Shown here one piece after another: positions 1 to 26,429 of a stretch of 50,810 nucleotides of DNA (positions are counted from its first letter, which is position 1; the number at the start of each line of letters is the position of its first letter). A program made the position numbers and the translations under genes. Below the pieces are notes generated by a model. It was given only the letters and a program-made list of their open reading frames with translations, was not told the DNA's origin and ran no database searches. The stretch covers positions 1 through 50,810 of the forward strand of contig JAGLLA010000012.1 of the NCBI GenBank assembly GCA_023140775.1. The letters are read 5' to 3'. The DNA is from Candidatus Parcubacteria bacterium. Lineage in GTDB: Bacteria > Patescibacteriota > Minisyncoccia > JAHIHE01 > JAGLIN01.

Positions 1-1088
1 GAATTATACCCTAAAAAGATTAAAACTGCAAAAAATCCCATATAATCTCCATAGTCAATTGATAGCAGAGTATAACTTGAAGCAAAATACACCAAAGCAT
101 TAGAAATGATAAGCGTAAGATCGAAAGTATCTACTCTCTTCTTGTATAAAATATTATGCGATACAATTGCCACCGAATATATGACAAACCATAATGTTAA
201 AAATACTAAAGTTGAGAAGAGTTGATTTCCATCGTAATGTTGCAAAAACCAAATGATATAAAGAAAAATTGTCGCCAAAAATCCAAGCAGATTAAGTTTC
301 TGCCAATTGCGAAAGTATGAAATACCAAGTATACCGAGATTTAAAATAGTAATATAGCTAAAAAGCTCGATTTGATTATCGATGCCAGTAGAAAGCAAAA
401 GCGGTGTCAAGAAGCCACCCAGAATAGATAGAGCAGCTAAACTTATCTGCTCATAGCGAATAGCTAAAAAAGCTCCAATCGCCGTAATAATCACCATAGT
501 AATAAAAGCTGGTATTTGTTCAATTAACTGATAATAAGCAAAACTAGAATAAATTGATAAATACAGAACGGCAATACCTCCACCAGTTAAAGTGGCAGCA
601 TAGGCATTGAACTTTTGTCGCAAAAAATCACCAAGATAAATCAGAATCATACCAGATAAAATTCCAATCGCGACACGACCAGTTTCACCAATCCAATCAT
701 TTTCAAAAGCATATTTCAAGAAGAAGGCAATGCCAAAAACCAAAGCCAAGATACCAATCCTACCCAACCATTTCAAACCAATCTCTGCTTCAAAATTTTC
801 CCTTTTTTTCGGTGTTTCTATTTTCGAATCTCTGCCAATTGAGTTGAGACCTTCTTTCTTAACAGAAGATTTCATATATTTTTCTAATTCTTGTGGCGCG
901 ACAACTGGCAATTCACGCTTCAGCTTCGAAGAAGAAAGACTATTAGCATAAAATGAAAGTATTTCTTTTTTATTTTTCTCTTTGTCATTTATCTGTCGCT
1001 CCAAAGAAGAAACTTTTTCCGACAAAAGAACAACCGTCTTTGATATCTCATCAAGTCGATTGATGATTGGATCTTTTTCTTGTGACAT
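1..1088 (-). CDS. DUF2339-type polytopic membrane protein, N-terminal part (runs off the window at position 1)
   Basis: Not in the ORF track. Reverse-strand ATG at 1088..1086 opens a stop-free frame to position 1: MSQEKDPIINRLDEISKTVVLLSEKVSSLERQINDKEK..., then LKWLGRIGILALVFGIAFFLKYAFENDWIGETGRVAIGILSGMILIYLGDFLRQKFNAYA and further TM segments. This coiled-coil plus multi-TM layout is what I associate with DUF2339. Confidence 0.6.
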   Translation of the reverse strand, partial: MSQEKDPIINRLDEISKTVVLLSEKVSSLERQINDKEKNKKEILSFYANSLSSSKLKRELPVVAPQELEKYMKSSVKKEGLNSIGRDSKIETPKKRENFEAEIGLKWLGRIGILALVFGIAFFLKYAFENDWIGETGRVAIGILSGMILIYLGDFLRQKFNAYAATLTGGGIAVLYLSIYSSFAYYQLIEQIPAFITMVIITAIGAFLAIRYEQISLAALSILGGFLTPLLLSTGIDNQIELFSYITILNLGILGISYFRNWQKLNLLGFLATIFLYIIWFLQHYDGNQLFSTLVFLTLWFVIYSVAIVSHNILYKKRVDTFDLTLIISNALVYFASSYTLLSIDYGDYMGFFAVLIFLGYN

Positions 1089-1139
1089 AAATTTAAATTA
1101 TTTATTAAATTTTTATTACAATTATTGTTTATATCCATA

Positions 1140-1272
1140 TTATACCACAAATCACTGAAAAATCCGCACTGATTTTTCTGCTATAATAATAACCGCTAAA
1201 ATTAGCAGTCATTTTGTTTGTTCGGGTCCCGGGACGGCCTGCCAGCCCGAGGAGGGATATTGGAACCTTTTT
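1140..1272. repeat. Junction repeat, copy 1 (most divergent)
   Basis: Right arm attttgtttgttcgggtcccgggacggcctgccagcccgaggagggatattggaaccttttt aligns with copies 2 and 3. On the gene (-) strand a gtggTATAAT box lies upstream of the DUF2339 ATG. Confidence 0.7.
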
Positions 1273-1291
1273 AAGGCAGAATATGAATTAA

Positions 1292-1831
1292 CTACTTCCC
1301 TTCACCAAATATCGAGATAAATTTCCCCTCTTTACCTACTTTCATCACCTCTTCTGGTGAAAAAACCCTACCATTCATACAAATATAGATACCAGGTTTT
1401 AAATCTTGTATTTTTGCGATTGAATAGCCAATACTAAATGGTCCATCAGAAGGACTAAAACCAACAAGAGGAATCATAGATCCCATAATAATTATAGTCT
1501 GATCTTTTCTTTTAAGATTTGCCTTCAGAAATCTAGCAGTGTCTGGCATGGTATATGTACCGTGAGTAATTATTATTTTCTTATTTGAACTTTTTTCAAC
1601 AGTAATTAAGATTTTTTTTAAGTCTGACTCAATAATATCTCTACTGTCTTTCATGCAAATATTTGTAAATTCAACAGGATTATATAATTTTAAACTTTTA
1701 ATAAAATTAGGTATTATTGATTTTTCATTTGGGACAGCCGTGTCTTTCGATGAGTCATAATAAGAATCAATTGTTCCTCCAGTTATTACAAAATGGATAG
1801 TTTTTTCTGACATAATACTTATATTAATCAA
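1292..1831 (-). CDS. Asparaginase/glutaminase-family domain protein (short, N-terminal domain only)
   Basis: IHFVITGGTIDS (TGGTI-type motif) and IIITHGTYTMPDTA (HGTDT-like motif), followed by IIIMGSMIPL. Confidence 0.7.
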   Translation of the reverse strand: MINISIMSEKTIHFVITGGTIDSYYDSSKDTAVPNEKSIIPNFIKSLKLYNPVEFTNICMKDSRDIIESDLKKILITVEKSSNKKIIITHGTYTMPDTARFLKANLKRKDQTIIIMGSMIPLVGFSPSDGPFSIGYSIAKIQDLKPGIYICMNGRVFSPEEVMKVGKEGKFISIFGEGK

Positions 1832-1849
1832 TTATTATATATATCCTAC

Positions 1850-1978
1850 CACAAAAATCACAAAAGTTCCAAAGTCCCTCAAGGGTTATAAAAATAACCG
1901 CTATAATTAGCGGATATTTTGTTTGTTCGGGTCCTGGGACAGCCTGCCCGCCTTCGGAGGGATGTTGGAACCTTTTTT
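1850..1978. repeat. Junction repeat, copy 2
   Basis: Left arm agttccaaag..ggttataaaaataaccgctataattagcggatattttgtttgttc is shared with copies 3 and 4. The GC-rich right arm gggtcctgggacagcctgcccgccttcggagggatgttggaacctttttt is identical to copy 3. On the (-) strand there is a CCGCTA/TAGCGG hairpin plus TTATTTTT (1890..1913) and a tgtggTAGGAT -10-like box before the ATG at 1831. Confidence 0.8.
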
Positions 1979-1989
1979 ATAAATAACAG

Positions 1990-2607
1990 CTAATTTATCA
2001 CTGGTCGAACTACAAATCTTCTTCTATTAATGCATACAAAAACTACAACCATATTTAATACAAAAAGAACTGCAAGATATGTGACGGTTAATAAATTATA
2101 TTCTGCATTTGAGATTATTGCCAAACAATCGACGATTGCCATTATAATCCAAAATGAAAGTGTTTCACTCCAGGGATTTTTTAAAGACTTTCTAATCGTA
2201 GGAATATAACCCGCACCATCAATTGCTGAAACCATTAACAGGGCGAGTAGCGGATTTTCTAGTTGCCACCAAATTACAATGGCAAGCAATGCTAACGCAA
2301 GAACAATTTTATCAGTAATGGTTATATCCCTGGTTCCATATTTAAATGAAAGTAAAAATATAACGAATACAAGAATAGTCCCAATAATCAAACTGATGCT
2401 TCCAAATTTACCACCTCCATATAACAAAGCGACGGTAGCTGTTCCTTGGGTAATCACCCAGATTAACCAAGTATACAAATGAGGTTTCGTTTTTTTTGCA
2501 AAAATATCTCTGAAATATGGAATAAAACCAATAATAGTAAGCGAGGCTGCAACGATTGCAATAATGAGCTTATAATCCATACTCTTTATAATTAAAATAA
2601 TTATCAA
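1990..2607 (-). CDS. Polytopic membrane protein, unknown family (likely true start at the Met at 2580)
   Basis: About 6-7 hydrophobic helices (LIIAIVAASLTIIGFIPYF, LIWVITQGTATVALLY, ISLIIGTILVFVIFLL...). No family recognised. Confidence 0.55.
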   Translation of the reverse strand: MIIILIIKSMDYKLIIAIVAASLTIIGFIPYFRDIFAKKTKPHLYTWLIWVITQGTATVALLYGGGKFGSISLIIGTILVFVIFLLSFKYGTRDITITDKIVLALALLAIVIWWQLENPLLALLMVSAIDGAGYIPTIRKSLKNPWSETLSFWIIMAIVDCLAIISNAEYNLLTVTYLAVLFVLNMVVVFVCINRRRFVVRPVIN

Positions 2608-2659
2608 CTAAAAACTTTTTCAAAATTCTATTTATTATTCTATTATATCTATATCTTAA

Positions 2660-2787
2660 CACAGACAATAAGAAGTTCCAAAGCTTCTCAATGGTTATAA
2701 AAATAACCACTATAAATAGCGGATATTTTGTTTGTTCGGGTCCTGGGACAGCCTGCCCGCCTTCGGAGGGATGTTGGAACCTTTTTT
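2660..2787. repeat. Junction repeat, copy 3
   Basis: Same architecture as copy 2. By eye, gcggatattttgtttgttcggg...ggaacctttttt is base-for-base identical to copy 2. Confidence 0.8.
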
Positions 2788-2799
2788 AAAAAATAAAGA

Positions 2800-3279
2800 C
2801 TATTTTTCCTTCAGTTCGCTTTCCCAACTTCTTAACAAATCCAATATCTTATTCTCAAATTTAGGCAAATACTCAATTTCAATTTGTCGATTATTTTCTT
2901 TATTGACTTGAATGATATCTGTCGCTCCTTCGTAAAATCCTTTTTCAATCATTTCGCTGGTTTTTCTACAGCCAAATACGATTCTCTTAATCCCAGACCA
3001 ATTTGCTACACTAAAACACATTAGACATGGTTGTAAAGAAGCATATAAAGTCGCACCAGTTAAATCTGCTGTTTGTGATTTTCTAGATGCCTCTCTTATA
3101 GAAGTTGTTTCAGCATGACCGGTAGGATCATTGAGCTTAGAGCCCAAGCTAACACCCTTAGCAATAATTTTTCTATTTTGAACTATAACAGAACCTGCGG
3201 GAAAACCGCCTTGCTCAACAGATTTTTTAGCCTGTTCAAGTGCTAACTCCAAAAATTGTTCGTCTTCTGATAAAAACAT
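2800..3279 (-). CDS. CMP/dCMP-type zinc deaminase (nucleoside, guanine or tRNA-adenosine deaminase-like)
   Basis: Zinc-ligand motifs GHAETTSIREA (HAE) and LQPCLMCFSV (PCxxC) at canonical spacing. Confidence 0.8.
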   Translation of the reverse strand: MFLSEDEQFLELALEQAKKSVEQGGFPAGSVIVQNRKIIAKGVSLGSKLNDPTGHAETTSIREASRKSQTADLTGATLYASLQPCLMCFSVANWSGIKRIVFGCRKTSEMIEKGFYEGATDIIQVNKENNRQIEIEYLPKFENKILDLLRSWESELKEK

Positions 3280-3319
3280 GTTGCTTATTAAATATTTTAA
3301 TTATCATAACTACATCTTA

Positions 3320-3399
3320 TCACAAATAACGAAAAAGTTCCAAAGTTTCTCAAGGGTTATAAAAATAATCACTATAAATAGCGGATATTTTGTTTGTTC
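3320..3399. repeat. Junction repeat, copy 4, left arm only (truncated at 3399)
   Basis: aagttccaaagtttctcaagggttataaaaataatcactataaatagcggatattttgtttgttc matches copies 2 and 3. Homology then stops abruptly and is replaced by cctctcacggtctagaacc. Confidence 0.75.
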
Positions 3400-3611
3400 C
3401 CTCTCACGGTCTAGAACCAAAGTGAATCAATCAGTGTAAGGGCTTTCTGACTCTTTTATGACGATAAAAATGACGCGTCTCGGTCGGGGTATAAAAGTGA
3501 GAAATGAGACAAATGGGACAGTATAAAAAGAGAATGTTTTTTGTGTCTGAATCCATAATTTTAAATAGTACAATAAGTTTTAAATTGAATGATAATAAAA
3601 AAGGAACCGCT

Positions 3612-4442
3612 TTATCTGTTTTTTAATTTAAAACAATTAAATTTCGTAACAATTGTAGTTCTACTCTTCTCACTATAAAGCAGGCCTAAAGATATTTCTT
3701 TTTCATTATTATAATATAAATTATCATTTACTTGGAATATATAAGGATTTTTTCTTGCAGTAGCTTGTCCGCTATTTTTATTTTCTTCAGGATAATATCT
3801 AAAATTTAAAGAAATATTTACAACATTCGAATTATTCATCATGCTTTGAATAATCTCAATTTCAACAGGTTCATCGAACCTAATCCTATTCGCTAATTCT
3901 ATTGGCCCAACAAAATCACTATTCGCTTCTGATATAAAATTATCTCCTTGCTTTAAATAAAAATGAGTATTATTTCCATCTCCTAAAATTATTTTATAAG
4001 AATTTCCGATATAAACAACAAAATTTATTTCCTTTTTTTCATTTAAAATTGGTACAAAATTAACGACCATATGAAAATTATTGGTTGTCTTTTGATTAAA
4101 TGTCATTTTTGGCCCCCAATCATTTTCAGGATTATAAGCAAAGACTTGACTATCTCTTTTCCACCAATCATCGATAGTCCACTTCTCAATATTAAGAAAA
4201 TCACTATCGCACTCTTTTGATTCTACATTTTTTTCTATTTCATTAGATTTATTTATTTCAACATGCGATTCTTTACTAATATTATCGTTTATATTTATTA
4301 AAATTTGATAAAATGCTCCAGCTTTAAAAATAATTGCCATAAAAGCAAAGATAGTCAGGCCTATAAGTAGATACCTATAAAAAGCATTATTTTCAAATTT
4401 TTCTAATGTCTTATTTTTTTTCTTTTTATTCTTATTCATCAA
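3612..4442 (-). CDS. Hypothetical membrane-anchored protein
   Basis: Long ORF with a basic N-terminus and one TM helix (YLLIGLTIFAFMAIIFKAGAF). It overlaps the upstream ORF by 11 nt (operon-like). Confidence 0.5.
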   Translation of the reverse strand: MMNKNKKKKNKTLEKFENNAFYRYLLIGLTIFAFMAIIFKAGAFYQILININDNISKESHVEINKSNEIEKNVESKECDSDFLNIEKWTIDDWWKRDSQVFAYNPENDWGPKMTFNQKTTNNFHMVVNFVPILNEKKEINFVVYIGNSYKIILGDGNNTHFYLKQGDNFISEANSDFVGPIELANRIRFDEPVEIEIIQSMMNNSNVVNISLNFRYYPEENKNSGQATARKNPYIFQVNDNLYYNNEKEISLGLLYSEKSRTTIVTKFNCFKLKNR

Positions 4443-11700: not shown

Positions 11701-12069
11701 TTCAAAAAAGATCATCCCAGTTTTATATTATTAGTTACATTGATTATTAATCTTTTCTCCCCAAGTCATTTTATTTAATGACACAGATTCATTTCTCCTG
11801 AATTGTAACAAAATCTTCCAAAAATTTGATGGTCCAGAAGCATTACAGTTAAATCCAATATCGCTTGAACCAAGGCTAGCACGTAATTGCGGGATAATTG
11901 CATTTAAAGCAATAGAAGATAATGAAGAACCAATGGTTCCAGAAATATTTGTTATTAGTTCTAGTCCGCGCAAAGGAAGAGGATCTTTCGATTTCTGGAA
12001 CGACGAAGATGATGATTGAAATAACAATTAATCTGAAAATAAAAGATTATATTTATTTTGCACCTTTAT

Positions 12070-13341
12070 TTAATACTTATTATTTTCACAATAAACCCTC
12101 ATCTTATAGTCAGTCGACCATTCATTCGCACAAGACAATCTAGCAGAATTAAAGTCTGATTCGGAAACATTTGTTGGTTTACCCTGATTTAATGTTCTAA
12201 TAGCATCATATTGCTGACCTTCACAATAAGCGCGCATTTTAAAATCAGTCAACCACTCATTTTCGCACTTTGGACGAATTACATTAAACTCGATGTCACC
12301 AATATCTGCTGGCTTACCATTATTTAAAGTACGAACTCCATCAAATTGCTGACCTTCACAATAAGCCCTCATCTTAAAGTCAGTAGGCCATTGATTTTTA
12401 CAATGCTCTCTTATTGTTAAAAATTGACTTTCGTTAATATCTGAGGGTTTATTAAGGCTTAATGTTGTCAATCCATTATATTGTTGTTCCTTGCAAAATA
12501 CTTTCATTTTGGCATCATTCGGCCATTCTGACTGACAATGACTTTCTATAATTGTGTCTGCACTATCTTCTATGCTAGATTTTGTTTCAATTGGCAATTC
12601 TTGTGACTCTGAATTTGTTTCATTATTTAACGAGGAAACTATTTCTGTTTTTTCATTATTCTCTTGATTCGATTCAACCTCTACAGAATCCTTAATATCA
12701 TCTTTATTTTCATTTAATTGAATTGGTACTATTTCTTCCTGATTTATATTATTAGATACACTACTTGGTCTTTCTTTGTTAATATTATCAGTAAACTTAT
12801 AGGTTAATATTTGATCCTTTTTAAGATCAGCCTTACTCCAATCGCCATTAGGAGCCCATTCAGCCATAGCCAATGAATAACTGCCATCAACTTGAGTTTC
12901 ATCAAAATAATAAAAAATAGATAAAGCATCTGCTTTTTTTGTCTTATAGTCATTAACTATTTTTTCGCTAACTACCTTAATTTGATTCTCGGTGACGGGA
13001 TTGTTGTTAATAATTACTCTAATATTAAATCTATTAGCAAGAGCATATGAAATATCTTCTTCTTTTACAATTTTATAATCTATGTCTTTTAATATATCAA
13101 CTTTTTCTACTTCAGCTTGAATATTATTAACTGATTTATTTTTACTATCTTCATTACTTCCACCACCAATTATTCCCAAAATAAATACAATTAAAATAAG
13201 AGATATAATCTTATGTCTCATAAACCAATTCCTTAAATCAGATCCACAGTGTTTACATTTTTTAGCACTTTTTAAAACATCTTCTTTACACTTAGCACAT
13301 TTTTTTGTTTGCCCAGAATTTTGTTGTTTTTCTTCAATCAT
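12070..13341 (-). CDS. Zinc-ribbon/TM protein with four tandem Cys-containing C-terminal repeats
   Basis: N-terminus CAKCKEDV...CKHCGSDL, then TM IISLILIVFILGIIGG. The C-terminus carries four copies of C(x)2(E/Q)W(x)(N/T)D(x)KM(K/R)(x)(F/Y)C spaced about 45 aa apart. Confidence 0.6.
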   Translation of the reverse strand: MIEEKQQNSGQTKKCAKCKEDVLKSAKKCKHCGSDLRNWFMRHKIISLILIVFILGIIGGGSNEDSKNKSVNNIQAEVEKVDILKDIDYKIVKEEDISYALANRFNIRVIINNNPVTENQIKVVSEKIVNDYKTKKADALSIFYYFDETQVDGSYSLAMAEWAPNGDWSKADLKKDQILTYKFTDNINKERPSSVSNNINQEEIVPIQLNENKDDIKDSVEVESNQENNEKTEIVSSLNNETNSESQELPIETKSSIEDSADTIIESHCQSEWPNDAKMKVFCKEQQYNGLTTLSLNKPSDINESQFLTIREHCKNQWPTDFKMRAYCEGQQFDGVRTLNNGKPADIGDIEFNVIRPKCENEWLTDFKMRAYCEGQQYDAIRTLNQGKPTNVSESDFNSARLSCANEWSTDYKMRVYCENNKY

Positions 13342-13697
13342 ATGTTTTTTATTAAATAGATTATTTATCTGTTTGTTGACCTTTAGGTGCTGGTTCAGAA
13401 AAACACAAAAAGTCCCCCGAACCAGCTGATAGCCCCTTGCGGAATTATCACTACACCCTTTCGGGTATAGACTTATCCTACAAGTACTGGTCGGAAGACC
13501 ATTTCTGTAGGATAGGTTTTAATACCATGCCTTATGAGAATCACAAGGGTTAGGCATTGAATTGTAATTACATATTAGATTGAATTAAGGAAAAAGTAAA
13601 GCATTAGTTACCTACAGTTTGTCTACTTTAAGCCCTCTAGACACACTAGAGGGGTTGTGTCATTCATTGTTATAGAGATTAACAATAATGCAAAAAT

Positions 13698-15035
13698 ATG
13701 AATGATTCTACGAAAAAATTACAATCCTACAAGGAAATTACTGAGCAAACAAAAGAAGTTGTACCAGCTGTTCGTTATTGCCTTTATGCCAGAAAATCGA
13801 CTGAATCGGACGAACAACAAGCCCTTTCAATTGACTCCCAAATAAATGAAATGACAAATATAGCCATAAGAGATAATTTAAATATAACCGAGATTAGGAA
13901 AGAAAGTCATTCTGCCAAGGACTCAGGGCAAAGACCAGTCTTCAATCAATTAATCAAAGATATCCGAAATGAAATGTTCGATGGTATTCTCACATGGGCT
14001 CCAGATAGATTAAGCAGAAATGCTGGCGACCTTGGTTCCCTTGTAGATTTAATGGATCAGAAAAAGTTATTAAAAATCAAAACATATGGTCAAAACTTTT
14101 CAAACTCCCCTAACGAAAAATTCTTACTAATGATTCTCTGTTCTCAAGCTAAACTTGAGAATGATAACAAGAGCATTAATGTTAAACGAGGATTGAGAAC
14201 AAGATGTGAAATGGGGCTTAGACCAGGAATTGCACCAACTGGCTACCTTAACGAGAAACGAACTGATCGAAGATGTCATGTTCTAGTTGATGTCGATAGA
14301 TCATATGTCATTAGCCAAATGTATGAAAAAGTTGCTAACGAAAATTGGAGCGGAAGAAAAGTATTTCACTGGCTTAAAGATGATATAGATTTCAAAACAA
14401 AAAATGGCAAGCACCTCACCTTGAGTAATGTATATATCATTCTCAAAAATACATTTTACCATGGCAGATTTGAATATCCAGTTGGTAGTGGAAATTGGTA
14501 CACTGGACAGCACAAGCCATTAGTATCCAGAGACTTGTTCGAAAAAGTCCAAAAACAATTAAACCGCGGTATGATTGTGAGATCTGAATCAAAAGAATTT
14601 GCATTTACAAAATTAATCAAATGCGGTTTATGTGGATCTGGCGTAACAGCTGAGGATAAATATAAACAAAGAAAAGACGGCTCAAGAAAAAAATACATCT
14701 ACTATGGATGTACAAGATTCAACGACAAGAAATGTAAATGCGGATATGTTCAAGAGAAAGACTTACTTGAACAATTAATTAAAATACTTGATAAAATAGA
14801 TCTAGACCAAATTGGCATGAAAAGAAAAATTGAACTTGAGATTGAAAGATATAATAAATTTAGATTTGGAGTGTTGGGCATGGATAAAAAAGAAAAAAAT
14901 CAACAAAAAGATGTTGACATTAGAAACTATGCAAAATATATATTGAAAGAAGGAAATGTTTATGAGAAAAGAGAATTGCTGGAATGTTTGAAAAGTAAGT
15001 TAGTTTTAAATGATAAAAAACTATATTTGAGTTAA
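13698..15035 (+). CDS. Large serine recombinase (integrase)
   Basis: Resolvase catalytic domain YCLYARKSTESDEQQALSIDSQ ... ILTWAPDRLSRN; recombinase domain; zinc ribbon CGLCGSGV...YYGC; coiled-coil tail. Confidence 0.85.
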   Translation: MNDSTKKLQSYKEITEQTKEVVPAVRYCLYARKSTESDEQQALSIDSQINEMTNIAIRDNLNITEIRKESHSAKDSGQRPVFNQLIKDIRNEMFDGILTWAPDRLSRNAGDLGSLVDLMDQKKLLKIKTYGQNFSNSPNEKFLLMILCSQAKLENDNKSINVKRGLRTRCEMGLRPGIAPTGYLNEKRTDRRCHVLVDVDRSYVISQMYEKVANENWSGRKVFHWLKDDIDFKTKNGKHLTLSNVYIILKNTFYHGRFEYPVGSGNWYTGQHKPLVSRDLFEKVQKQLNRGMIVRSESKEFAFTKLIKCGLCGSGVTAEDKYKQRKDGSRKKYIYYGCTRFNDKKCKCGYVQEKDLLEQLIKILDKIDLDQIGMKRKIELEIERYNKFRFGVLGMDKKEKNQQKDVDIRNYAKYILKEGNVYEKRELLECLKSKLVLNDKKLYLS

Positions 15036-15132
15036 TTTTTATTGGAAATATTAACCCTTATTTTTTATACTGCAATAAATTGCACACTTCTATTATTACA
15101 CATCCAAAAAAACAGGGTCAAACGATGTCATA

Positions 15133-15168
15133 ATTGCACACTTCTATACAAGTGTGCAATGGGTTTTT
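15133..15168 (+). terminator. Perfect 11-bp-arm hairpin plus T-tract after the recombinase gene
   Basis: ATTGCACACTT (15133-15143) / AAGTGTGCAAT (15150-15160), 6-nt loop, then GGGTTTTT. Confidence 0.55.
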
Positions 15169-15423
15169 CTAAAATGGCATATCATCTGAATTTGTTTCCT
15201 CATCTTCGACAGAGGCAGTTTTTTCGATGTCATTAATCGCTTCTATCATTGAATTTATATGTCCTTGCTCTTCTTTGGAAATATCGCCTTCAAATTCTAC
15301 TTCTAATCCCTCTCCTTTTTTTAATTCCTTGATCATTGTTATATAATCTTCAGGAGAAAAGTCATCCCCCTTAATTGTTGCAGAGATTTCCCCGCTTTCT
15401 TTTTTTGTAAATTTTATCTTCAT
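15169..15423 (-). CDS. Small acidic protein, last gene of the PHP-ATPase operon
   Basis: 84 aa, strongly acidic (EVEFEGDISKEEQ...SVEDEETNSDDMPF). Its ATG lies 6 nt after the stop of the upstream gene. Confidence 0.5.
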   Translation of the reverse strand: MKIKFTKKESGEISATIKGDDFSPEDYITMIKELKKGEGLEVEFEGDISKEEQGHINSMIEAINDIEKTASVEDEETNSDDMPF

Positions 15424-15429
15424 ATATTG

Positions 15430-17781
15430 TTATTCTTTAAACTTTTTTAAATTATATTTTTTAAATCTTTTCTTAATTGAAGATTTCCCACCATCTGCAA
15501 TCCTCGCTATGTAATCAACCACGCTTATCTCGTCAATTTTACCTTCCAGCGGATTTGATCTTATTTTGATTTTACCCTCTTTGTTCTCACAAAGTATTAT
15601 ATTTTGAGCATCTCCTGCCATTGGAATTGTAGCGTTGTGAGAAACAAAAATGATTTGTTTTTTAGTTTTCATTTTTTTTATAGCACTTACAAGTCCATTA
15701 TTCATATAACTTGTGGCCAAATTATCTTCTGGCTGGTCGATAATTAGAGGAGCGGAATCCTTTTCGTAGTTTAATATGATCTCCAAAATCGCGGAGGTTT
15801 GACGTCCTGGACTTAAATTATCAATATCTTCTCCATCGGGAGTTTCAATTTTATAAATAACCTTATTTTCTTCTTGAAATTCTAAATAAACTCTATTCTT
15901 AAATCCAGTATAATCATTTACTTTTGGATTTTGTTTAAAACCTGCTTCAAATAATTTCTCCGGCACCAGCTCGCTAAAGAATTCAATTTCATTGTCTTTT
16001 AGTAAGAATTTATTAAATTTCTTTATTAAAATTTCTTTATTTAGTTCAAGTTTGTTCTTAATATATAAAGTATGTCCAGCGACTTTTATTTCTTTCGGTT
16101 TTGGATCAATTGAATATAAAGAAATTTTTTCTAGAGCCTTTTCAAACTTATATAAATTGTTGTAATACTCTTTCATTTTTCCAATAAGTTCCTTGAACTC
16201 TTGTCTATTCTTTTCTGATTCACCCATTTGATCTCTAAGTTCTGTATCAACCTCTTTTTTCTTATTTTCTATCACCATTCTTACTTTTTCCTCAAAAGCA
16301 GAATACTCCTGCATGTCTTTTATTGTTTTTATTAATTCTTCAATTAATTTTTTATTATGATCAACAAAAGGGTTTTGGGATATTTTTTTACTTATTTCGT
16401 TAATCTTATCAAGATGCTCCTCCATCTCCGATTTGCCATATGTGATAGTAGTTAAAGTACTTTCTTCGGGTAAAAGAGGAGTAATTAAATTTCTGTCAGT
16501 ATCTTCCGTGACTAGCAAAGAAGATATTGCCGGCATTTTTTTTATTTCTTTTTCCAAGGCATCTATTCTTTCAACAGAATTCATAAGGTCTGTAAGGTCT
16601 GTGTTTAGCTTCGCTAAACCATTATTTATTTTTTTCTCTGCATCTTTATCTATAGGGAAAACATTTTTAATGATGGCTATATCCGTAATTTTTACATTTT
16701 TATTAGAATCGCTTGTGGCATTAATTATAAAATTTTGCTTAATAAAATGTGGATGCATTTGCTTCGGGTAGTCGACTTTCATGTCTTCGACACCATACTC
16801 CAAATAATTACTGTCTTTAAAATTTGAACGGGTTATTTTCCTGTTTAGCGAATCAGCGAGAAGAGTTTTACCACTTGAAGATTCACCAATAATCACATTC
16901 AGCCCTGGGGTTAATTTGATATCTATATCGATATATTTATTATTTAATGTCACGCCTTTAATTGACTCTTTCCATTTTTCTGGTTGCGTCTGACTGTATA
17001 TTAATCGGGATGACTCAGATAAAGACAATCTAAGACCACTAAAAACTGGGGTTGCCAACATCCAAGTCGGAATAAATTCATAGGTTTCGTCAGCTTTTGG
17101 CTTTGGGTAAATTTCTGGATTGTAATTATCAGTACAAGTTATTAAATTTATGAATTCATCAATCCCGAGCTTTTTGAGATATGCTTTTGTATCTTCGGTT
17201 TTTTTGTCTGATCTGGACGTGAATCCGTCAAAGAAGTTGTAATATACATTTCTCTGCATAGTATTATCAAACTCTTTTCCCTTTGGGATAGACCTCTCAA
17301 AGGTGGAATGTGTTTGACCTCCGTGTGGTAAAAGAATAAAATCGTATTCATCAAATTCATCCAATATCTGCTCAATCATTGGTATTGTTTCATCTTTTAA
17401 GTCTGGCTGTTTGTTTTGGTATAGTTTATCTAACTTACTGTTTATATCATTCAAGACACCCTTATTGATTTCATCAAGATTAAAATATATATGACAATGG
17501 TACGCCTCCGTTTCTGTGTCTTTGTGAGTTTGTATGTGTAACTCAACACCAAGTATTAAACTATGCCTTATTTTTTCAACTGCTTCTAGATAAACTTTTT
17601 CATTTATAGTGTTATGGTCGGTAAATGAAATTAAAAAATCGGAGCCCTGAGCAACGACTTTAACTTTTTCTATCAATGTATCTAAGTCATAGTTTTCATT
17701 TAAACTATTCGGGTTTTCAGAAGTGTGAATATGTAAATCTAAATAGACTGGAACCATAATTTTATATATTGAATTTACCAT
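15430..17781 (-). CDS. PHP (polymerase/histidinol-phosphatase) domain fused to an SMC/ABC-like ATPase; Ppl-like defence candidate
   Basis: PHP motifs LDLHIHTSENP, FTDHNT, HCHIYF, LLPHGGQ; Walker A GESSSGKT; long coiled-coil insert; signature-like LSPGRQTS; Walker B LIIDQPEDNL; FVSHN. Confidence 0.8.
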   Translation of the reverse strand: MVNSIYKIMVPVYLDLHIHTSENPNSLNENYDLDTLIEKVKVVAQGSDFLISFTDHNTINEKVYLEAVEKIRHSLILGVELHIQTHKDTETEAYHCHIYFNLDEINKGVLNDINSKLDKLYQNKQPDLKDETIPMIEQILDEFDEYDFILLPHGGQTHSTFERSIPKGKEFDNTMQRNVYYNFFDGFTSRSDKKTEDTKAYLKKLGIDEFINLITCTDNYNPEIYPKPKADETYEFIPTWMLATPVFSGLRLSLSESSRLIYSQTQPEKWKESIKGVTLNNKYIDIDIKLTPGLNVIIGESSSGKTLLADSLNRKITRSNFKDSNYLEYGVEDMKVDYPKQMHPHFIKQNFIINATSDSNKNVKITDIAIIKNVFPIDKDAEKKINNGLAKLNTDLTDLMNSVERIDALEKEIKKMPAISSLLVTEDTDRNLITPLLPEESTLTTITYGKSEMEEHLDKINEISKKISQNPFVDHNKKLIEELIKTIKDMQEYSAFEEKVRMVIENKKKEVDTELRDQMGESEKNRQEFKELIGKMKEYYNNLYKFEKALEKISLYSIDPKPKEIKVAGHTLYIKNKLELNKEILIKKFNKFLLKDNEIEFFSELVPEKLFEAGFKQNPKVNDYTGFKNRVYLEFQEENKVIYKIETPDGEDIDNLSPGRQTSAILEIILNYEKDSAPLIIDQPEDNLATSYMNNGLVSAIKKMKTKKQIIFVSHNATIPMAGDAQNIILCENKEGKIKIRSNPLEGKIDEISVVDYIARIADGGKSSIKKRFKKYNLKKFKE

Positions 17782-18605
17782 TTTTTGTAATCTTTTTCTA
17801 AATTTTCTATTTCTTTTACTATTTTTTCTTCAAAATATTTATCCATTCTGTCTGCAGTTTTTTCTTTAAATTTATTTAACTCCTTTTTGTTTTTAAAATA
17901 TCGAAAATAAGTTCCTGCAAACTTTGATTTCCATTTTATTATTCCCATTTTCCTAAGCTCTAATAAAATAGTTCTTGTTGATACAAGGGTATAAATAGCA
18001 GTTTTAAGATTTTTCTCTATCATATCGCTATTAATCATTTTTTCGAATTCCTGTAGATTCCTTAAGTACATATCATTTTGTTCAGAAGGTAGGTTTAATT
18101 TTTTGAAAACCATTTTCTCGTTTTTATCAACAGTAGAAGTAAATTGCCTTCGTGTATCATCTATACTTTCTGAGAGATCTTTTAAATTTCTTAATACCAA
18201 TGCCATTTTATTATCCAAATATCCACTTTTTGTGTTTATCGATAAAATTTCATAATTAATAAATTCTTTTCCAATGTAAGGAAAGAATGCATTATCTGTT
18301 GAATAACAACTAACACTTCTTTCTTTAATATTTTCTTTAAGTCCCTTAAATTGACTACTTAAAAATTTCTCAATAGTATATTTAGTATCATAAATACTGT
18401 TTATAGCGTTAACAAGATATTTCTCTAAATAAATTAGATTTCTTTTATGTTCTTTCTTTGCTTCGTATAATTCTTTTAAATACCAAAACGAAATAGGCAG
18501 AATGATTCCAATAGTTGATCCAACCAATGTTTGCCAATTGTATAAGATATCGGTTATCGAAGATATTGTCATAATTTTATTATCAGTATTTTTTAAACTA
18601 GTCAA
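17775..18605 (-). CDS. Single-pass membrane, mostly helical protein; first gene of the PHP-ATPase operon
   Basis: TM LVGSTIGIILPISFWYL. Its stop TAA (17777-17775) overlaps the ATG (17781-17779) of the PHP-ATPase gene in ATGGTAA. Confidence 0.55.
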   Translation of the reverse strand: MTSLKNTDNKIMTISSITDILYNWQTLVGSTIGIILPISFWYLKELYEAKKEHKRNLIYLEKYLVNAINSIYDTKYTIEKFLSSQFKGLKENIKERSVSCYSTDNAFFPYIGKEFINYEILSINTKSGYLDNKMALVLRNLKDLSESIDDTRRQFTSTVDKNEKMVFKKLNLPSEQNDMYLRNLQEFEKMINSDMIEKNLKTAIYTLVSTRTILLELRKMGIIKWKSKFAGTYFRYFKNKKELNKFKEKTADRMDKYFEEKIVKEIENLEKDYKKW

Positions 18606-18634
18606 TAAAGAACACGGGGACTCTTTGTCTTTGT

Positions 18635-18724
18635 TTATTTCTTAGTTGAACTTTCTACAATTTTAATCTCCTCCTATCCTAATTCATATATTTTATAAAC
18701 CATCTCATCTGTTCTTGTTTCGAG
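18635..18724 (-). pseudogene. Decayed C-terminal tail of a methyltransferase/restriction-type gene (in-frame stop)
   Basis: Minus-strand frame reads LETRTDEMVYKIYELG*EEIKIVESSTKK*. It has no start codon and begins 9 nt after the Mrr-like stop. Confidence 0.35.
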
Positions 18725-18735
18725 TTATCTCCGTC

Positions 18736-19434
18736 TTAAATCTTTTTAGTAAATTTACATTTAGGATAATTTGAACATCCTACAAATTCACCAAACTTTC
18801 CTTTTCTCACTACGAGCTTTCCACCACAAGTCGGACAAACCTCTGTTTCTCTATTTTCGATAATTTCATTTTCTTTGTTTGCTAGTTTAACCAGTTTCAA
18901 TAATTCATCTCCATCGATCAATTCGATTGGTTTATCTTCTGCGAATTTCACAGCTTCTGTTGTGAAAATGTTTGTTGTAATAAAAATTCCCTTGCCTTGT
19001 GAAAGTTTATCCATTAAGGCACCAGCAAAATCCCTAACATCTCCAACCGATACTTTTGAAGTTATATATTTCTTACATTGAATGTAATGTTTGATACCAT
19101 CTTTTTCAGCAATCACATCCACTCCTCCGTCATATGAACCGCCAACCTTTTCCGTCTTATACCCAAGCTTGAAATACAAATCTGCAATATAAGCTTCAAA
19201 ATCATTTGGATGAAGTTTTCTTAACATTCCAAGTACATCTCGCTCTGATGACCATTTATTAACTTGATCGATTTTCTTCTCAGTCTTTAGCTTTTTAAAA
19301 TACCGTGGCAACCACACTTCGGCAGCTATTTTCATTAATGCAATTATAATCAATAGAATCCACACGGGCCAAAAAGAAATAAGCATAGAGAATATACTTG
19401 CATTTGTTTCATTCGCCATATTAGACCACTCCAT
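18736..19434 (-). CDS. Membrane-anchored Mrr-type restriction endonuclease with a topoisomerase-type zinc finger
   Basis: FEAYIADLYFKLGYKTEKVGGSYDGGVDVIAEKDGIKHYIQCKKY (Mrr_cat D...D..QCK core); C-terminus CPTCGGKLVVRKGKFGEFVGCSNYPKC. Confidence 0.8.
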   Translation of the reverse strand: MEWSNMANETNASIFSMLISFWPVWILLIIIALMKIAAEVWLPRYFKKLKTEKKIDQVNKWSSERDVLGMLRKLHPNDFEAYIADLYFKLGYKTEKVGGSYDGGVDVIAEKDGIKHYIQCKKYITSKVSVGDVRDFAGALMDKLSQGKGIFITTNIFTTEAVKFAEDKPIELIDGDELLKLVKLANKENEIIENRETEVCPTCGGKLVVRKGKFGEFVGCSNYPKCKFTKKI

Positions 19435-19590
19435 ATTGTTTAGTTATTATTAATTCCTTAGTTGCTTTGTCTTATTTTCTCTAAAAGAGTTTCCTTAAAC
19501 TTATACTATCTTCAGTTTAAACTATTTTTTTATTTTTCCACTGTTTATGATTTTGTGGAAATATGAAGAACACACTGAAACCATTTTTTC

Positions 19591-20157
19591 TTATTTCATC
19601 TTTTCCTTTTCGAATAATATCTCGGCGATTCTCCTTTCGTCTTCAGTTAAAAATTCTGATTTTGAAAAATCAGCTTCTTGGGCTGTCTCAAAATAATCAA
19701 TCAATATTTTTTCCTTAGTTTTTCTTAACGACAATGCTTGACCTTCATATTTGAGATTTTCGATTCGATTATGACTCAAATCATCTCTTATATTTTTTAG
19801 CTTCCATAATAGCTTAGTTCGTTTAGTTTCACCGAACAAAGCTTCGTATGCCTTAACTTTATCCGAAAAATTTTCAAGATCATTAAAATTAACTTCTTTT
19901 TCCCCTTTAATTTTCTCTTTTAGTATTTCTTCAACTTTTTTCTTTACTTCAGGAGATAGGGTAGAAGTCTCTGTTTTCAAGGATTCATTTAAAACATAAT
20001 ATAAATCAGTTTCAGCCATATAAACTAACCAGAACACAAAAGAGACAGTGGCAATTTGCTCATCATTCATTTTTAAAGCACATTTGGGAATGGTTTCATT
20101 AATTTGTTGATCTGAAATATCTTCAATTTTCTTTTTAAATAATTCTACTAATTCCAT
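19591..20157 (-). CDS. Helical protein with an Rx4H motif (possible HEPN/Abi-like)
   Basis: LWKLKNIRDDLSHNRIE contains R-x4-H in the C-terminal third of a mostly helical 188-aa protein. The motif alone is weak evidence. Confidence 0.4.
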   Translation of the reverse strand: MELVELFKKKIEDISDQQINETIPKCALKMNDEQIATVSFVFWLVYMAETDLYYVLNESLKTETSTLSPEVKKKVEEILKEKIKGEKEVNFNDLENFSDKVKAYEALFGETKRTKLLWKLKNIRDDLSHNRIENLKYEGQALSLRKTKEKILIDYFETAQEADFSKSEFLTEDERRIAEILFEKEKMK

Positions 20158-20166
20158 AAATTCAAT

Positions 20167-20271
20167 TTATTTATTTTCTATTATCTTAATTTCATCTTCA
20201 CTTAAATCATAAAGTTTATAAACAAGCTGATCGATTTGCGACTCAAGACTTTTAGTGTCCGTATCTTTGTT
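20167..20271 (-). pseudogene. Orphan C-terminal tail of a methyltransferase/restriction-type gene
   Basis: Minus-strand frame NKDTDTKSLESQIDQLVYKLYDLSEDEIKIIENK*. It has no start codon, begins right after the zinc-ribbon ORF stop and ends 9 nt before the next ATG. Confidence 0.4.
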
Positions 20272-20278
20272 TTATTTT

Positions 20279-20950
20279 TCATTCTTCTATTTTTCTAATC
20301 TTATCAACTAAAAACTTTATGTAATATCCTTTATCAGATCTCACTTGAACATATTTTTCATCTACAAAATAATCATACACTTCTCTCTGTGTAGTATCAT
20401 CACGATACCAAAACTTTAATGGCATATTATTTGCTTCTTGTTTTTTTAGGTAAGCAATTGTTTCTTCCAAAGTATTTTCTCTTTGAAAAGTATCTTTTAT
20501 TTTCGGCTTCCTGGGAACAAAGCTCTTAATAACTCCATTAGATGTCCAATTTCTTCCACAATCCTTGCAAACATATCTTTGCTTTTCATTTCTAAATCCT
20601 TTTTTCTCATAATTTTCAGAATCACATGTTGGACATCTATTTCCGTAACTAGAAACCTCATTTTTATTAAAAGCAACTTCACTTGTGCAATTTTGACAAA
20701 CATATATAGAGCCTTCTTTCGCTACCTCTAAATATCCACAATATGGACATTTTATTCCTTCTTGTTTGATTCTTAATTTCTGATAAATTTTCGATGTTCT
20801 TTCGCAATTTCTACAAATTTTATTGCCATTTTTATCTACCACTAACGATTCAGCCTGACAAGTTGAGCAAACTTGACGAATTCTCTCAACTTTCTTTGGT
20901 GTTTTTTTTACAAAACGTTTTTTGCTTATCTTTTTTCTATATTTATGCAA
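20279..20950 (-). CDS. Multi-zinc-ribbon protein (called from a TTG start; the frame stays open further upstream)
   Basis: Three CxxC...CxxC ribbons (CSTCQ..CRNC, CPYCG..CQNC, CPTCD..CKDC) and a C-terminal beta-rich domain. A fourth ribbon is encoded in-frame upstream at 20951-21102. Confidence 0.6.
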   Translation of the reverse strand: MHKYRKKISKKRFVKKTPKKVERIRQVCSTCQAESLVVDKNGNKICRNCERTSKIYQKLRIKQEGIKCPYCGYLEVAKEGSIYVCQNCTSEVAFNKNEVSSYGNRCPTCDSENYEKKGFRNEKQRYVCKDCGRNWTSNGVIKSFVPRKPKIKDTFQRENTLEETIAYLKKQEANNMPLKFWYRDDTTQREVYDYFVDEKYVQVRSDKGYYIKFLVDKIRKIEE

Positions 20951-21102
20951 AACAACACCATGTTCATTTTCGTAACAATTTATACAGTAATTTACAGATT
21001 TATAAGGAAAATAAATTGCTTCATTTATTTTTCCACAATTATCACAAGCCCTTTCGTTTCCTTCTTTTAATCTATCAATCTGATTATGTAATTTTTCAAG
21101 TA

Positions 21103-25839: not shown

Positions 25840-26041
25840 ATTTTTTATTTAACCCCGTTCATTTATATACAAACAAATACGCCTGAAACATTTTAAAATC
25901 ACATAGGGCGTACCTATAACCTATATTACCCTTAAAAAGAGAATTAGTAAAGAAAATGAGAAAATTACACAACAAAAAAACACTTCCTAAAAAGCGCTTT
26001 TTTATAGGTGTCTCGGTCGCGAAACACCTCTCACATGACTG

Positions 26042-26112
26042 TTCGGGGACAGGGATTCGAACCCCGATTGCCTGGACCAAAACCAGGTGTCCTACCATTA
26101 GACTATCCCCGA
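26042..26112 (-). tRNA. tRNA-Gln (anticodon UUG)
   Basis: TCGGGGA TA GTCT AATGGTA GGAC A CCTGG TTTTGGT CCAGG CAAT CGGGG TTCGAAT CCCTG TCCCCGA A folds as a cloverleaf by hand. It has a U1:A72 pair, a 7-nt anticodon loop with TTG at 34-36, and no encoded CCA. Confidence 0.9.
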
Positions 26113-26358: not shown

Positions 26359-26429
26359 AGTTTTATTTTTGATATTGTCTATATTTCATCTTAAACTGCA
26401 TTTCTTCATCGCCTGGACTCTTGTCTGCC

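Follow-up and report, generated by a model that had tools for sequence, protein, structure and literature searches.

Single-gene cassettes stacked beside a tRNA-Gln gene in a tiny-genome CPR/Paceibacteria bacterium

CIMEs (Streptococcus ICESt1/ICESt3) are cis-mobilisable elements that are flanked by att sites and carry no recombination genes. Integrons line up single-ORF cassettes that are unrelated to one another, all oriented alike and each closed by a conserved recombination-type repeat (attC); the arrays are anchored at attI, their content varies among strains, and the recombinase (IntI) lies outside the cassettes. In tycheposons and accretion islands, flexible genes pile up at tRNA genes, partial tRNA-like repeats lie between the units, and newcomers displace older units outwards; the tycheposons of Prochlorococcus use both tyrosine and large serine recombinases (bioRxiv 10.1101/2020.12.28.424599). 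In the 50,810-nt stretch of DNA analyzed here (the window), single-gene cassettes are stacked beside a tRNA-Gln gene of a tiny-genome CPR/Paceibacteria bacterium. With its tripartite junctions and an array that differs among close relatives, the locus looks like an integron-like gene-swapping site of a type not previously described in CPR/Paceibacteria. The array is best read as a variation, itself new, on tRNA-anchored island building, and not as an integron, a MITE or a plus-strand small RNA.

An earlier note on this DNA described a cassette-like run of unrelated short genes, all on the minus strand, and ORF calls and Pfam bear this out. The genes, the junctions between them and the anchor are as follows.

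2-1088, minus strand: gene of a DUF2339 membrane protein, truncated at the window end; forms the array's distal flank
1140-1280: junction c1, gap between the DUF2339 and asparaginase-like genes
1292-1813, minus strand: cassette ORF 3, asparaginase-N-domain protein, 173 aa (Pfam)
1840-1980: junction c2, gap between the asparaginase-like and membrane protein genes
1990-2580, minus strand: cassette ORF 2, membrane protein, 196 aa, without a Pfam match
2649-2790: junction c3, gap between the membrane protein and deaminase genes
2800-3279, minus strand: cassette ORF 1, cytidine/dCMP-type deaminase, 159 aa (ORF call and Pfam)
3311-3399: junction c4, upstream of the deaminase gene
3487-26009, no strand: 22.5-kb island between tRNA-Gln and the array
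26041-26112, minus strand: tRNA-Gln(UUG), hotspot anchor, with 3' end ...GGTTCGAATCCCTGTCCCCGAAC

On the gene strand, the junction is tripartite: a box (B) is followed by an A-rich spacer with an intrinsic terminator and then by a promoter-like segment (module A). A cassette is thus made up of a terminator, a promoter, an ORF and B. A 21-nt core pattern has four matches in the window against 0.00 expected from shuffles, and all copies within the 50.8 kb sit in this one array, with none elsewhere in the window. The same element had been said to fill every gap; a copy does lie at each of the four gaps, but only c2 and c3 are complete, with B, spacer/terminator and A. Junction c4 has the promoter and terminator part without B (B' precedes its spacer) and diverges from position 3400 onward, while c1 has B and spacer/terminator followed by an unrelated flank, and lacks the promoter arm of about 25 nt (GTTCCAAAGTCCCTC). 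These partial copies agree with what is expected for the two ends of a tandem array. Junctions c2 and c3 are 94.8% identical across 116 nt, and the identity over about 70 nt pointed out before is an exact 72-nt run (1908-1979 = 2717-2788). It had been taken for recent duplication or conversion. The run fits gene conversion, or repeated use of one attachment-type sequence, but alone it is no evidence for gene duplication. The modules are as follows.

1139-1192, minus strand: stretch beyond the c1 terminator that is the distal flank and the DUF2339 promoter rather than module A1
1193-1208, minus strand: c1 terminator hairpin, CUGCUAAUUUUAGCGG
1220-1267, minus strand: long-form box B, copy 1 (a diverged variant), which is the asparaginase-like cassette's 3' module
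1834-1885, minus strand: module A of c2, promoter-like region of the asparaginase-like gene
1898-1913, minus strand: c2 intrinsic terminator hairpin, CCGCUAAUUAUAGCGG, then U-tract (terminator scan)
1914-1924: c2 spacer, AAACAAAAUAU
1925-1972, minus strand: long-form box B, copy 2, which is the membrane-protein cassette's 3' module; gene strand GGTTCCAACATCCCTCCGAAGGCGGGCAGGCTGTCCCAGGACCCGAAC
2640-2694, minus strand: module A of c3, promoter-like region of the membrane-protein gene
2707-2722, minus strand: c3 intrinsic terminator hairpin, CCGCUAUUUAUAGUGG, with a G.U pair on the gene strand only (terminator scan)
2734-2781, minus strand: long-form box B, copy 3 (same sequence as copy 2), which is the deaminase cassette's 3' module
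3296-3356, minus strand: module A of c4, promoter-like region of the deaminase gene
3369-3384, minus strand: c4 terminator hairpin
3396-3418, minus strand: B', a 23-nt degenerate tRNA-3'-end-like box, GGTTCTAGACCGTGAGAGGGAAC; proximal anchor of the array

The CCGCTA/TAGCGG hairpin with its T-tract had been called terminator-like, and the terminator scan detects minus-strand terminators at c2 and c3. Hairpin sequences are wholly different between junctions, while the stem and U-tract are kept and stability is usually higher on the gene strand (for c1, a folding energy of -12.2 kcal/mol there vs -5.6 on the other). The terminator palindrome (13-nt arms, 4-nt spacer) was considered as a tyrosine-recombinase core site and rejected, because the hairpin sequence differs entirely elsewhere while the stem and U-tract persist. 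Module A of c2 has a -35-like box (TTGGAA or TTGTGA) and a -10-like box (TGnTAGGAT or TATAAT), and it includes an arm, GAGGGACTTTGGAAC, that is inverted relative to the 5' end of B. The -10-like box reported before each ATG is present as TGTG(G/T/A)TA(T/G/A)(A/G)AT at 1139-1149, 1843-1853, 2653-2663 and 3314-3324. The region at 1139-1192 has a different hairpin (GAAAAAUC..GAUUUUUC) plus TGTGGTATAAT.

The array is anchored at tRNA-Gln and displaced from it in the window by the 22.5-kb island, a relation that the earlier note missed. The island contains phage-like genes, Mrr, a 1578-aa SF1 helicase, a large serine recombinase (13698-15035) and LOOT RNA, and it is bounded by a 10-bp direct repeat, CGACCGAGAC (plus strand GTCTCGGTCG, 3477-3486 and 26010-26019). 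When positions 3487-26009 are removed, the window is colinear with the uninterrupted locus L080, and the array begins about 125 nt past tRNA-Gln. ARAGORN with relaxed settings found no credible tRNA upstream of c4 between 3300 and 3700.

Box B has the gene-strand consensus AAAAAGGTTCCAAYAT...CCCGA(A/G)C and measures 28 nt in most relatives (B-short) and 48 nt in the window (B-long), where an extra 20-nt GC-rich block accounts for the difference. Its GC-rich arm is a mimic of the tRNA-Gln 3' end, which also had gone unnoticed. Local alignment of B with the segment of tRNA-Gln from T-loop to 3' end gives p ~0.003 on the same strand and is not significant on the reverse strand, and a profile built from B also detects tRNA-Gln 3' ends. 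Rather than a simple tRNA copy, B is a conserved box of its own that exceeds the tRNA segment by 5 or 25 nt; B', immediately before the c4 spacer, has the length of the tRNA segment (23 nt). B terminates CCCGAAC where the resident tRNA terminates CCCCGAAC; in L037, B ends CCCGAGC and the tRNA CCCCGAGC, and in L079, B ends GCGAGC and the tRNA CTCCGAGC. Across nine distinct copies of B-short from four lineages, the first 23 nt hardly vary; the dnaX genes of these lineages are 68-85% identical to that of the window. Of the GC-rich structured segment proposed before, the GC-rich arm stands, but the RNA fold is weak (alifold -4 kcal/mol, one compensatory pair, four sequences). An origin of B as the reverse complement of the tRNA 5' half was also considered and rejected, the B-short alignment not being significant. 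A disrupted tRNA copy at 26.4 kb has a strong reverse-strand match to B-long, which is due to a common 18-20-nt GC-rich block.

The comparative data are metagenome contigs or MAGs only, mostly from one sample series. The earlier note had allowed that the element might occur only here, yet it is present in at least five other Paceibacterota lineages and so is not confined to the window locus. In related Paceibacterota, the same junctions lie immediately past tRNA-Gln(UUG) or tRNA-Gln(CUG). The 831-kb scaffold L037 has five B junctions immediately past tRNA-Gln(UUG), and in MAG RS_2_29 (L020), tRNA-Gln(CUG) adjoins the same spacer and terminator, followed by a gene, B, further genes and B. Box B also lies downstream of tRNA-Gln in L014/L026, L015, L027 and L079, and the array starts directly at the tRNA-Gln 3' side in L020, L029, L037 and L079. 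Some 5' modules recur in front of different ORFs: A1 in both the window and L037, A2 in both L014/L026 and L020. The cassette ORFs of relatives encode small proteins, none with a recombinase domain.

The tRNA-Gln locus is hypervariable, and relatives part company exactly at the tRNA 3' end. In a lineage whose dnaX is 81% identical to that of the window, three different sequences lie past the tRNA in different samples, and four contigs end at ...CCCCGAACA(A). In L029, the tRNA is followed directly by spacer, terminator, A and the asparaginase-like gene, 100% identical to window c2 over 251 nt with the c2-specific variants included, while the L029 backbone is only 76-80% identical to the window. 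The asparaginase-like cassette occupies two different array positions on different backbones, and L029 places the cassette boundary at CCCGAAC|AAAC, on the B/spacer side of the junction. L029 could be a mis-join via a shared repeat of at least 55 nt; yet the tRNA|spacer junction must occur in reads.

The closest homologues of the asparaginase-N-like protein are 81-82% identical and include DPANN archaeal proteins. Exact-protein look-ups with the three cassette proteins returned the same array alone, on short contigs that break off within the repeats (k = 55 type ends); the element is absent from the neighborhoods of the closest DUF2339 homologue (59% identity). Four patterns searched in IMG/VR gave chance or coding-sequence coincidences only; the 34 matches to a B 18-mer all fall within one GC-rich phage gene family. 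A scan of JGI metagenomes with a 19-mer gave two chance matches only.

Taken together, we think it likely that the three-module junctions bound mobile single-gene cassettes in a strain-variable array downstream of tRNA-Gln in a Candidatus Paceibacterota clade. Cassettes may have entered and left, for which the alternative tRNA neighbors across samples and the one cassette found at two positions are indirect evidence; neither a circular form nor a pair of empty and occupied sites was seen. The cassettes would be exchanged by recombination within the shared segment CCCGAAC|AAACAAAATATCCGCTA, the chromosome offering the tRNA 3' end as its site and the cassette carrying B as its own; each arrival would then restore the terminator behind the tRNA and push older cassettes outwards. 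The spacer, stem-loop and U-tract would end transcription of the upstream gene or tRNA, and the promoter-like segment would drive the next gene. B may have a 3'-UTR function alongside a DNA role.

This arrangement resembles tycheposons and accretion islands in the piling up of flexible genes at a tRNA, the tRNA-like repeats between units and the proposed outward displacement of older units. It differs in that a cassette measures 0.6-0.8 kb, holds just one ORF and lacks both integrase and replication module. In addition, the repeat stands apart from a plain partial tRNA as a conserved box in its own right, each unit has a terminator and a promoter, and the host is a CPR bacterium. As in CIMEs, the cargo is bounded by attachment-site repeats and has no integrase of its own, and the integrase of a neighbor in the hotspot could move it. 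However, CIMEs are kilobase-long decay products of ICEs, whereas here diverse ORFs sit between conserved 5' and 3' modules in units that are uniform and minimal.

The main alternative, which we regard as unlikely, needs no dedicated system: terminator-promoter modules would be homogenized by gene conversion, and cassettes swapped through RecA homologous recombination (e.g., after DNA uptake). The “minimal mobile elements” of Neisseria are swapped in this way, through flanking homology. Exact repeats of 25-72 nt flank each gene here and could suffice without a dedicated enzyme, the cassettes have no linked recombinase, and the sharing of A1 and A2 by cassettes with different ORFs is in keeping with such exchange. 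However, this homology is short for RecA, and RecA exchange leaves several observations unexplained: the mimicry of the tRNA-Gln 3' end by the repeat, the arrays at two different tRNA-Gln genes with variation starting exactly at the tRNA 3' end, the tracking of the resident tRNA by the last bases of B, and 23 nt of B that are nearly invariant though coding backbones differ by at least 20%.

Repeated insertion of a MITE-like, Correia-like element, an imperfect palindrome of about 113 nt (arms AAAAGGTTCCAA...TTGGAACTTTT) carrying terminator and promoter, is highly improbable. The long closing stem (7+6 bp), folding z-scores of -5.1 and -4.5, and conservation of the arms between the window and L037 junction a speak for it. 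But the window copies form a single cluster, those of relatives lie downstream of tRNA-Gln and nowhere else, and the second arm is missing from most relatives' junctions (L014, L015, L037 b-e). Moreover, c1 and c4 are partial in a modular way, the gene downstream of c2 is accompanied in L029 by the c2-specific terminator and promoter, and no target-site duplication was seen.

Equally hard to credit is a reading at the RNA level, either as a plus-strand small RNA (promoter at 1901-1906, terminator at 1978), as the earlier note had suggested, or with B purely as a tRNA-like 3'-UTR element for processing or stability. On the plus strand a T-tract does follow GGAACC, the c2 hairpin is bidirectional, and B, which has a T-loop-like box, would be transcribed as 3' UTR if the terminators work. 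The small RNA itself did not hold up: its “TATAAT” at 1901-1906 is loop and stem of the terminator hairpin, G.U pairing favors the gene strand only, and Rfam 15 with gathering and E-value thresholds gave no match over 1050-3700 (best E = 0.23, a spurious MIR477 match reflecting the palindrome). The consensus fold of B shows almost no covariation, and tRNA anchoring and strain-level variability would be left unexplained.

Least probable of all is a classical integron array with the junction as attC: the single-ORF cassettes in one orientation, each ending in a recombination-type repeat, the strain-variable content, the absence of a recombinase from the cassettes and a palindromic junction with R/L-like boxes (7-bp outer box, 2-nt gap, 6-bp inner box) are integron-like, but the window has neither IntI nor an attC consensus, the R that defines RYYYAAC is lacking from TTCCAAC and the G and Y of GTTRRRY from TTTGGAA, the boundary from L029 lies at the proximal B/spacer side and not at a distal R' box, the last junction (c1) is without its distal arm whereas the last attC of an integron is complete, the repeat is tRNA-like and strongly conserved in sequence rather than structure, the anchor is a tRNA gene instead of attI, and each cassette carries its own promoter and its upstream neighbor's terminator.

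For the mobile cassettes that we favor, the agent would most likely be a site-specific recombinase acting in trans, a proposal that we hold with about even confidence. Among window ORFs of 90 aa or longer, a Pfam scan detected neither a Phage_integrase-type protein nor any other tyrosine recombinase, in line with the earlier remark that neither an integron integrase nor an attC consensus could be seen; the large serine recombinase at 13698-15035 is the sole recombinase found. No recombinase is encoded within or beside any cassette. The large serine recombinases of the same hotspot are the best lead, though a tentative one. In L079, a large serine recombinase ORF (as called) overlaps the tRNA-Gln 3' end and starts an island that ends in a B box; the window enzyme lies inside a separate island and is 26% identical to it.

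Repeated recombination of attL-like sites is not expected of serine integrases, and tandem arrays would need reuse of a site that is canonically left as an inactive attL. Their zinc-ribbon motif is offset by 5 bp between attB and attP and is closer to the crossover in attB (PMC3783163). From GGTTC(C/G)AA to the CG of CCCGAAC there are 10 nt in the tRNA and 15 nt in B-short, so that the shared 8-nt box is 5 bp farther from the presumed crossover in B-short. In three lineages, the lengths of 28 nt (B-short) vs 23 nt (tRNA) show this same 5-bp offset as in the zinc-ribbon rule, while the 48-nt B of the window deviates from the spacing. The att sites of these enzymes span about 40-50 bp and have two half-sites in imperfect dyad symmetry about a central dinucleotide. 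No symmetric second half-site was found here: to the right of CCCGAAC, in the A-rich spacer and variable hairpins, there is no inverted box copy at the expected distance. It is possible, if somewhat doubtful, that the whole constitutes a dedicated platform for gene capture in this clade, like an integron in function but of different build, with docking at the tRNA-Gln 3' end, box B, cassettes that express themselves from a promoter of their own and supply a terminator to the upstream neighbor, a recombinase encoded elsewhere and acting in trans (possibly a large serine recombinase reading the 5-bp offset between B and tRNA) and movement between lineages that includes cargo shared with DPANN.

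Gain and loss of accessory genes are poorly understood in CPR/Patescibacteria, whose genomes are very small. The array accounts for the assemblies of such genomes breaking exactly at the tRNA-Gln locus. If the cassette reading is true, compact self-expressing cassettes docked at a tRNA would be a concrete mechanism of strain-level gene turnover, and box B would serve as a searchable signature of the CPR flexible gene pool in metagenomes. The locus might also reveal a recombinase/site pair with integron-like behavior and different chemistry.

The window corresponds to ENA contig ZHAN22-2 scaffold_151 (G+C about 31%) and carries at its left end four minus-strand genes separated by a junction element. 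Copies c1 to c4 were located in all the gaps where the earlier note had placed it, and c2 and c3 alone are complete.

Genes and junction copies at the left end of the window
2-1088, minus strand, DUF2339 gene (Pfam)
1140-1280, gene strand minus, junction c1
1292-1813, minus strand, gene for an asparaginase-N-domain protein (Pfam)
1840-1980, gene strand minus, junction c2
1990-2580, minus strand, membrane protein gene without a Pfam hit
2649-2790, gene strand minus, junction c3
2800-3279, minus strand, cytidine/dCMP-type deaminase gene
3311-3399, gene strand minus, junction c4

The 21-nt junction core pattern has four matches in the window versus 0.00 expected. Junctions c2 and c3 are 94.8% identical across 116 nt and share an exact run of 72 nt (1908-1979 and 2717-2788), in agreement with the roughly 70 nt of identity previously claimed. 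A 25-nt arm is absent from c1, and similarity of c4 to the other junctions ends at 3400.

On the gene strand, the upstream stop codon is followed by box B, then a spacer and terminator, then module A. Box B is an A-run followed by GGTTCCAACATCCCTCCGAAGGCGGGCAGGCTGTCCCAGGACCCGAAC; the spacer is AAACAAAAUAU, leading into a 6-bp stem-loop with a U-tract; and the promoter-like module A ends in TGTG(G/T/A)TA(N)(A/G)AT about 30 nt ahead of the next ATG. A terminator scan picked up c2 and c3, both on the minus strand. The hairpin's variant arms (CCACTA, TCACTA, and TAGCAG) keep their pairing solely as G.U on the gene strand, where folding is also usually stabler (for c1, -12.2 versus -5.6 kcal/mol on the opposite strand), and both features argue that the hairpin is an RNA terminator of that strand. 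The plus-strand small RNA suggested in the earlier note is not supported: its TATAAT box (1901-1906) is simply the loop of this hairpin. Together with an arm in module A (GAGGGACTTTGGAAC), the 5' end of B makes up a long imperfect palindrome in c2 and c3. The palindrome is not the essential feature, because most junctions of relatives lack the arm. The junction element had no Rfam match.

The element also occurs beyond the window, where a search had been advised: scanning GTDB genomes with it identified two Candidatus Paceibacterota MAGs. In RS_2_29 (L020), tRNA-Gln(CUG) is directly followed by spacer and terminator, and then by a gene, a B junction, two genes, and another B junction. Box B is similar to the 3'-terminal 23 nt of tRNA-Gln, a stretch that starts at the T-loop (tRNA GGTTCGAA-----TCCCTGTCCCCGAACA versus the short form of B, GGTTCCAACATCGTCCCAGGACCCGAACA). 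The same-strand alignment has p of about 0.003, the reverse-strand alignment is not significant, and in a search with an nhmmer profile built on B, tRNA-Gln 3' ends come up as weak matches. In the window and two related contigs, the end of B tracks the resident tRNA.

Ends of tRNA-Gln and of box B
Window, tRNA 3' end CCCCGAAC, B end CCCGAAC
L037, tRNA 3' end CCCCGAGC, B end CCCGAGC
L079, tRNA 3' end CTCCGAGC, B end GCGAGC

The first 23 nt of short B are almost invariant (9/9 distinct copies), while the coding backbone of the lineage with 81% dnaX identity is just 76-80% identical to the window at the nucleotide level. This marks B as a conserved functional sequence rather than a decaying relic. 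Long B is set apart from short B by an 18-20-nt GC-rich block, CCTG(Y)CCGCCT(YY)GGAGG, with three matches versus 0.01 expected; this block could be a very small insertion module.

GC-rich block of long B
Window 1943-1960 and 2752-2769, plus strand
L037 14618-14682 and 15267-15331

The block is also found at 26453-26470 (minus strand) in the D-arm of a disrupted tRNA-Gln copy, where it runs opposite to the tRNA strand. In IMG/VR, the 18-mer GGTTCCAACATCGTCCCA is present in 34 GC-rich viral contigs (L045-L078), each time within one and the same conserved coding region; this is a chance agreement with a single phage gene family and is unrelated to box B.

Relatives were reached via dnaX, which lies just upstream of tRNA-Gln(UUG) in the window. 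Contigs L026/L014 (dnaX 85% identical) have one B 2.5 kb after tRNA-Gln, at the same locus as the window, and on the 831-kb scaffold L037 (dnaX 68%), the 3.4 kb directly after tRNA-Gln contain five B junctions, of which three are short and two are long. In L079 (dnaX 68%), an island lies between tRNA-Gln and a B variant. In the window itself, array and tRNA are separated by a later island.

Island and tRNA-Gln neighborhood in the window
3487-26009, island (22.5 kb) interrupting the hairpin just past tRNA-Gln(UUG), flanked by a 10-bp direct repeat
13428-13556, minus strand, LOOT RNA (Rfam RF03000, 69 bits, E = 5e-11)
13698-15035, large serine recombinase gene, in the island
18736-19434, Mrr gene, in the island
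26041-26112, tRNA-Gln(UUG), with dnaX just upstream
26120-26496, minus strand, 5' part of a disrupted second tRNA-Gln, with an ORF, between dnaX and the intact tRNA-Gln

The hairpin-forming AGTCATGTGAGAGGTGTTTCGCGACCGAGAC downstream of tRNA-Gln also follows the tRNA in L035 and L080. The direct repeat is the 10-mer CGACCGAGAC, with copies at 3477-3486 (plus-strand GTCTCGGTCG) and 26010-26019. Without 3487-26009, the window is colinear with the uninterrupted L080 locus (tRNA, hairpin, 23-nt tRNA-end-like box, spacer, terminator), and the cassette array begins about 125 nt past tRNA-Gln. The 23-nt box is at 3396-3418 in the window (B') and is GGATTCGAATTGATATTTCCGAAC in L080. The island also encodes phage-like and terminase-like genes, a LexA-like repressor, a ParB-methylase, methylases, an AAA ATPase, and a 1578-aa SF1 helicase. 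The LOOT RNA lies directly upstream of the large serine recombinase gene, perhaps where one element meets another inside the island. L035 has the same tRNA-proximal island end but a type I R-M system instead. The 41-aa ORF at 3431-3556 (minus strand), which contains a CPIC motif, is probably not a real gene because it spans the island boundary. The disrupted tRNA-Gln is 96% identical to the real tRNA over its first 26 nt, has small insertions in the D-arm and anticodon loop, and is followed by a small GIY-YIG-like ORF (26357->26120); in L029 and L080 the tRNA comes directly after dnaX.

Variation at this locus begins at the tRNA end. Eight contigs of the 81%-dnaX lineage, from different samples and carrying dnaX and tRNA-Gln, diverge from the first bases past ...CCCCGAAC.

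Sequence following tRNA-Gln in the 81%-dnaX lineage
L029, AAACAAAATATCCGCTAATTATAGCGG...
L027 and L028, AAACAAAATAATCGC..., then a reverse 96-aa gene and a B box
L034, AAAAAAATACACC...

Four of the eight stop exactly at ...CCCCGAACA(A). The locus is a systematic assembly breakpoint in this lineage; assemblies from the eight samples (L027-L034) break 0-670 bp past tRNA-Gln. Past its tRNA, L029 matches the window at 100% identity for 251 nt, from the c2 spacer through the terminator and module A into the start of the asparaginase-like gene, including the positions that distinguish c2 from c3 and c4, so a gene moves together with the terminator and promoter that precede it. L029 comes from a metagenome assembly, and a jump via a longer shared repeat further on is possible, but the k-mer common with any B junction is only 17 nt, so that reads must contain its tRNA|spacer joint. 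These alignments point to a cassette composed of terminator, promoter, ORF, and B, with a predicted exchange point within CCCGAACAAACAAAATATCCGCTA. The asparaginase-like cassette is tRNA-proximal in the L029 lineage and occupies third place in the window's array. A cassette array predicts partial copies such as c4 and c1 at its two ends, and the earlier intuition of such an array was right. Cassettes with unrelated ORFs share 5' modules (type A1 of module A in the window and L037a, type A2 in L014/L026 and L020). The cargo appears to be foreign: proteins with 81-82% identity to the asparaginase-like protein are encoded by DPANN archaea, on archaeal contigs with fibrillarin/Nop genes (in L081, a fibrillarin/Nop neighborhood). 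The protein belongs to a very conserved family of ~172 aa common to CPR bacteria and DPANN archaea (L081-L083), which suggests inter-domain exchange of this small gene.

Modular anatomy, tRNA anchoring, B conservation, and strain-level variability from the tRNA end onward are evident. In the proposed exchange, a cassette-borne B|spacer site would recombine with the tRNA 3' end or with a resident B. The cassettes contain no recombinase genes. Large serine recombinases are a lead. In L079, such a gene adjoins the tRNA-Gln 3' end and heads an island that closes with a B box (11843-21300); the 537-aa product's called ORF overlaps the tRNA 3' end. This island also encodes a REP_ORF2-G2P replication protein and two reverse transcriptases, one fused to a trypsin-like domain. 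In three lineages, the distance from the GGTTC(C/G)AA box to the CG of CCCGAAC is 10 nt in the tRNA and 15 nt in short B, an offset equal to the 5-bp shift of the zinc-ribbon motif between attB and attP that has been reported for serine integrases (PMC3783163). However, B in the window is 20 nt longer, a symmetric second half-site is not visible, the two recombinases seen share just 26% identity, and reuse of attL-type sites is unexpected of canonical serine integrases. Homologous recombination through the 25-72-nt repeats is a real alternative. An integron, which the array resembles in functional behavior, is rejected: as the earlier note had stated, there is no IntI and no attC consensus. 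In addition, the boundary is on the wrong side, and the window ORFs scanned (at least 90 aa) include no tyrosine recombinase. Nor is the junction MITE-like, given the confinement of its copies to tRNA-Gln loci and a dispensable second arm.

The closest described process is that of tycheposons, in which tRNA-anchored islands grow as units integrate one after another, with partial tRNA repeats separating them; integrase-less units of the CIME type are a related case. The present units differ from these: they are uniform and minimal, each 0.6-0.8 kb with one ORF, lack hallmark genes, carry a conserved mimic of the tRNA end that is distinct from a plain partial tRNA, and each bring a terminator and promoter. 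The description that fits the junction best is a mimic of the tRNA-Gln end joined to a terminator and a promoter. It delimits the exchangeable one-gene cassettes found at the tRNA-Gln hotspot of a Paceibacterota clade. Should a dedicated recombinase turn up, CPR bacteria would have a gene-capture platform of a new type.
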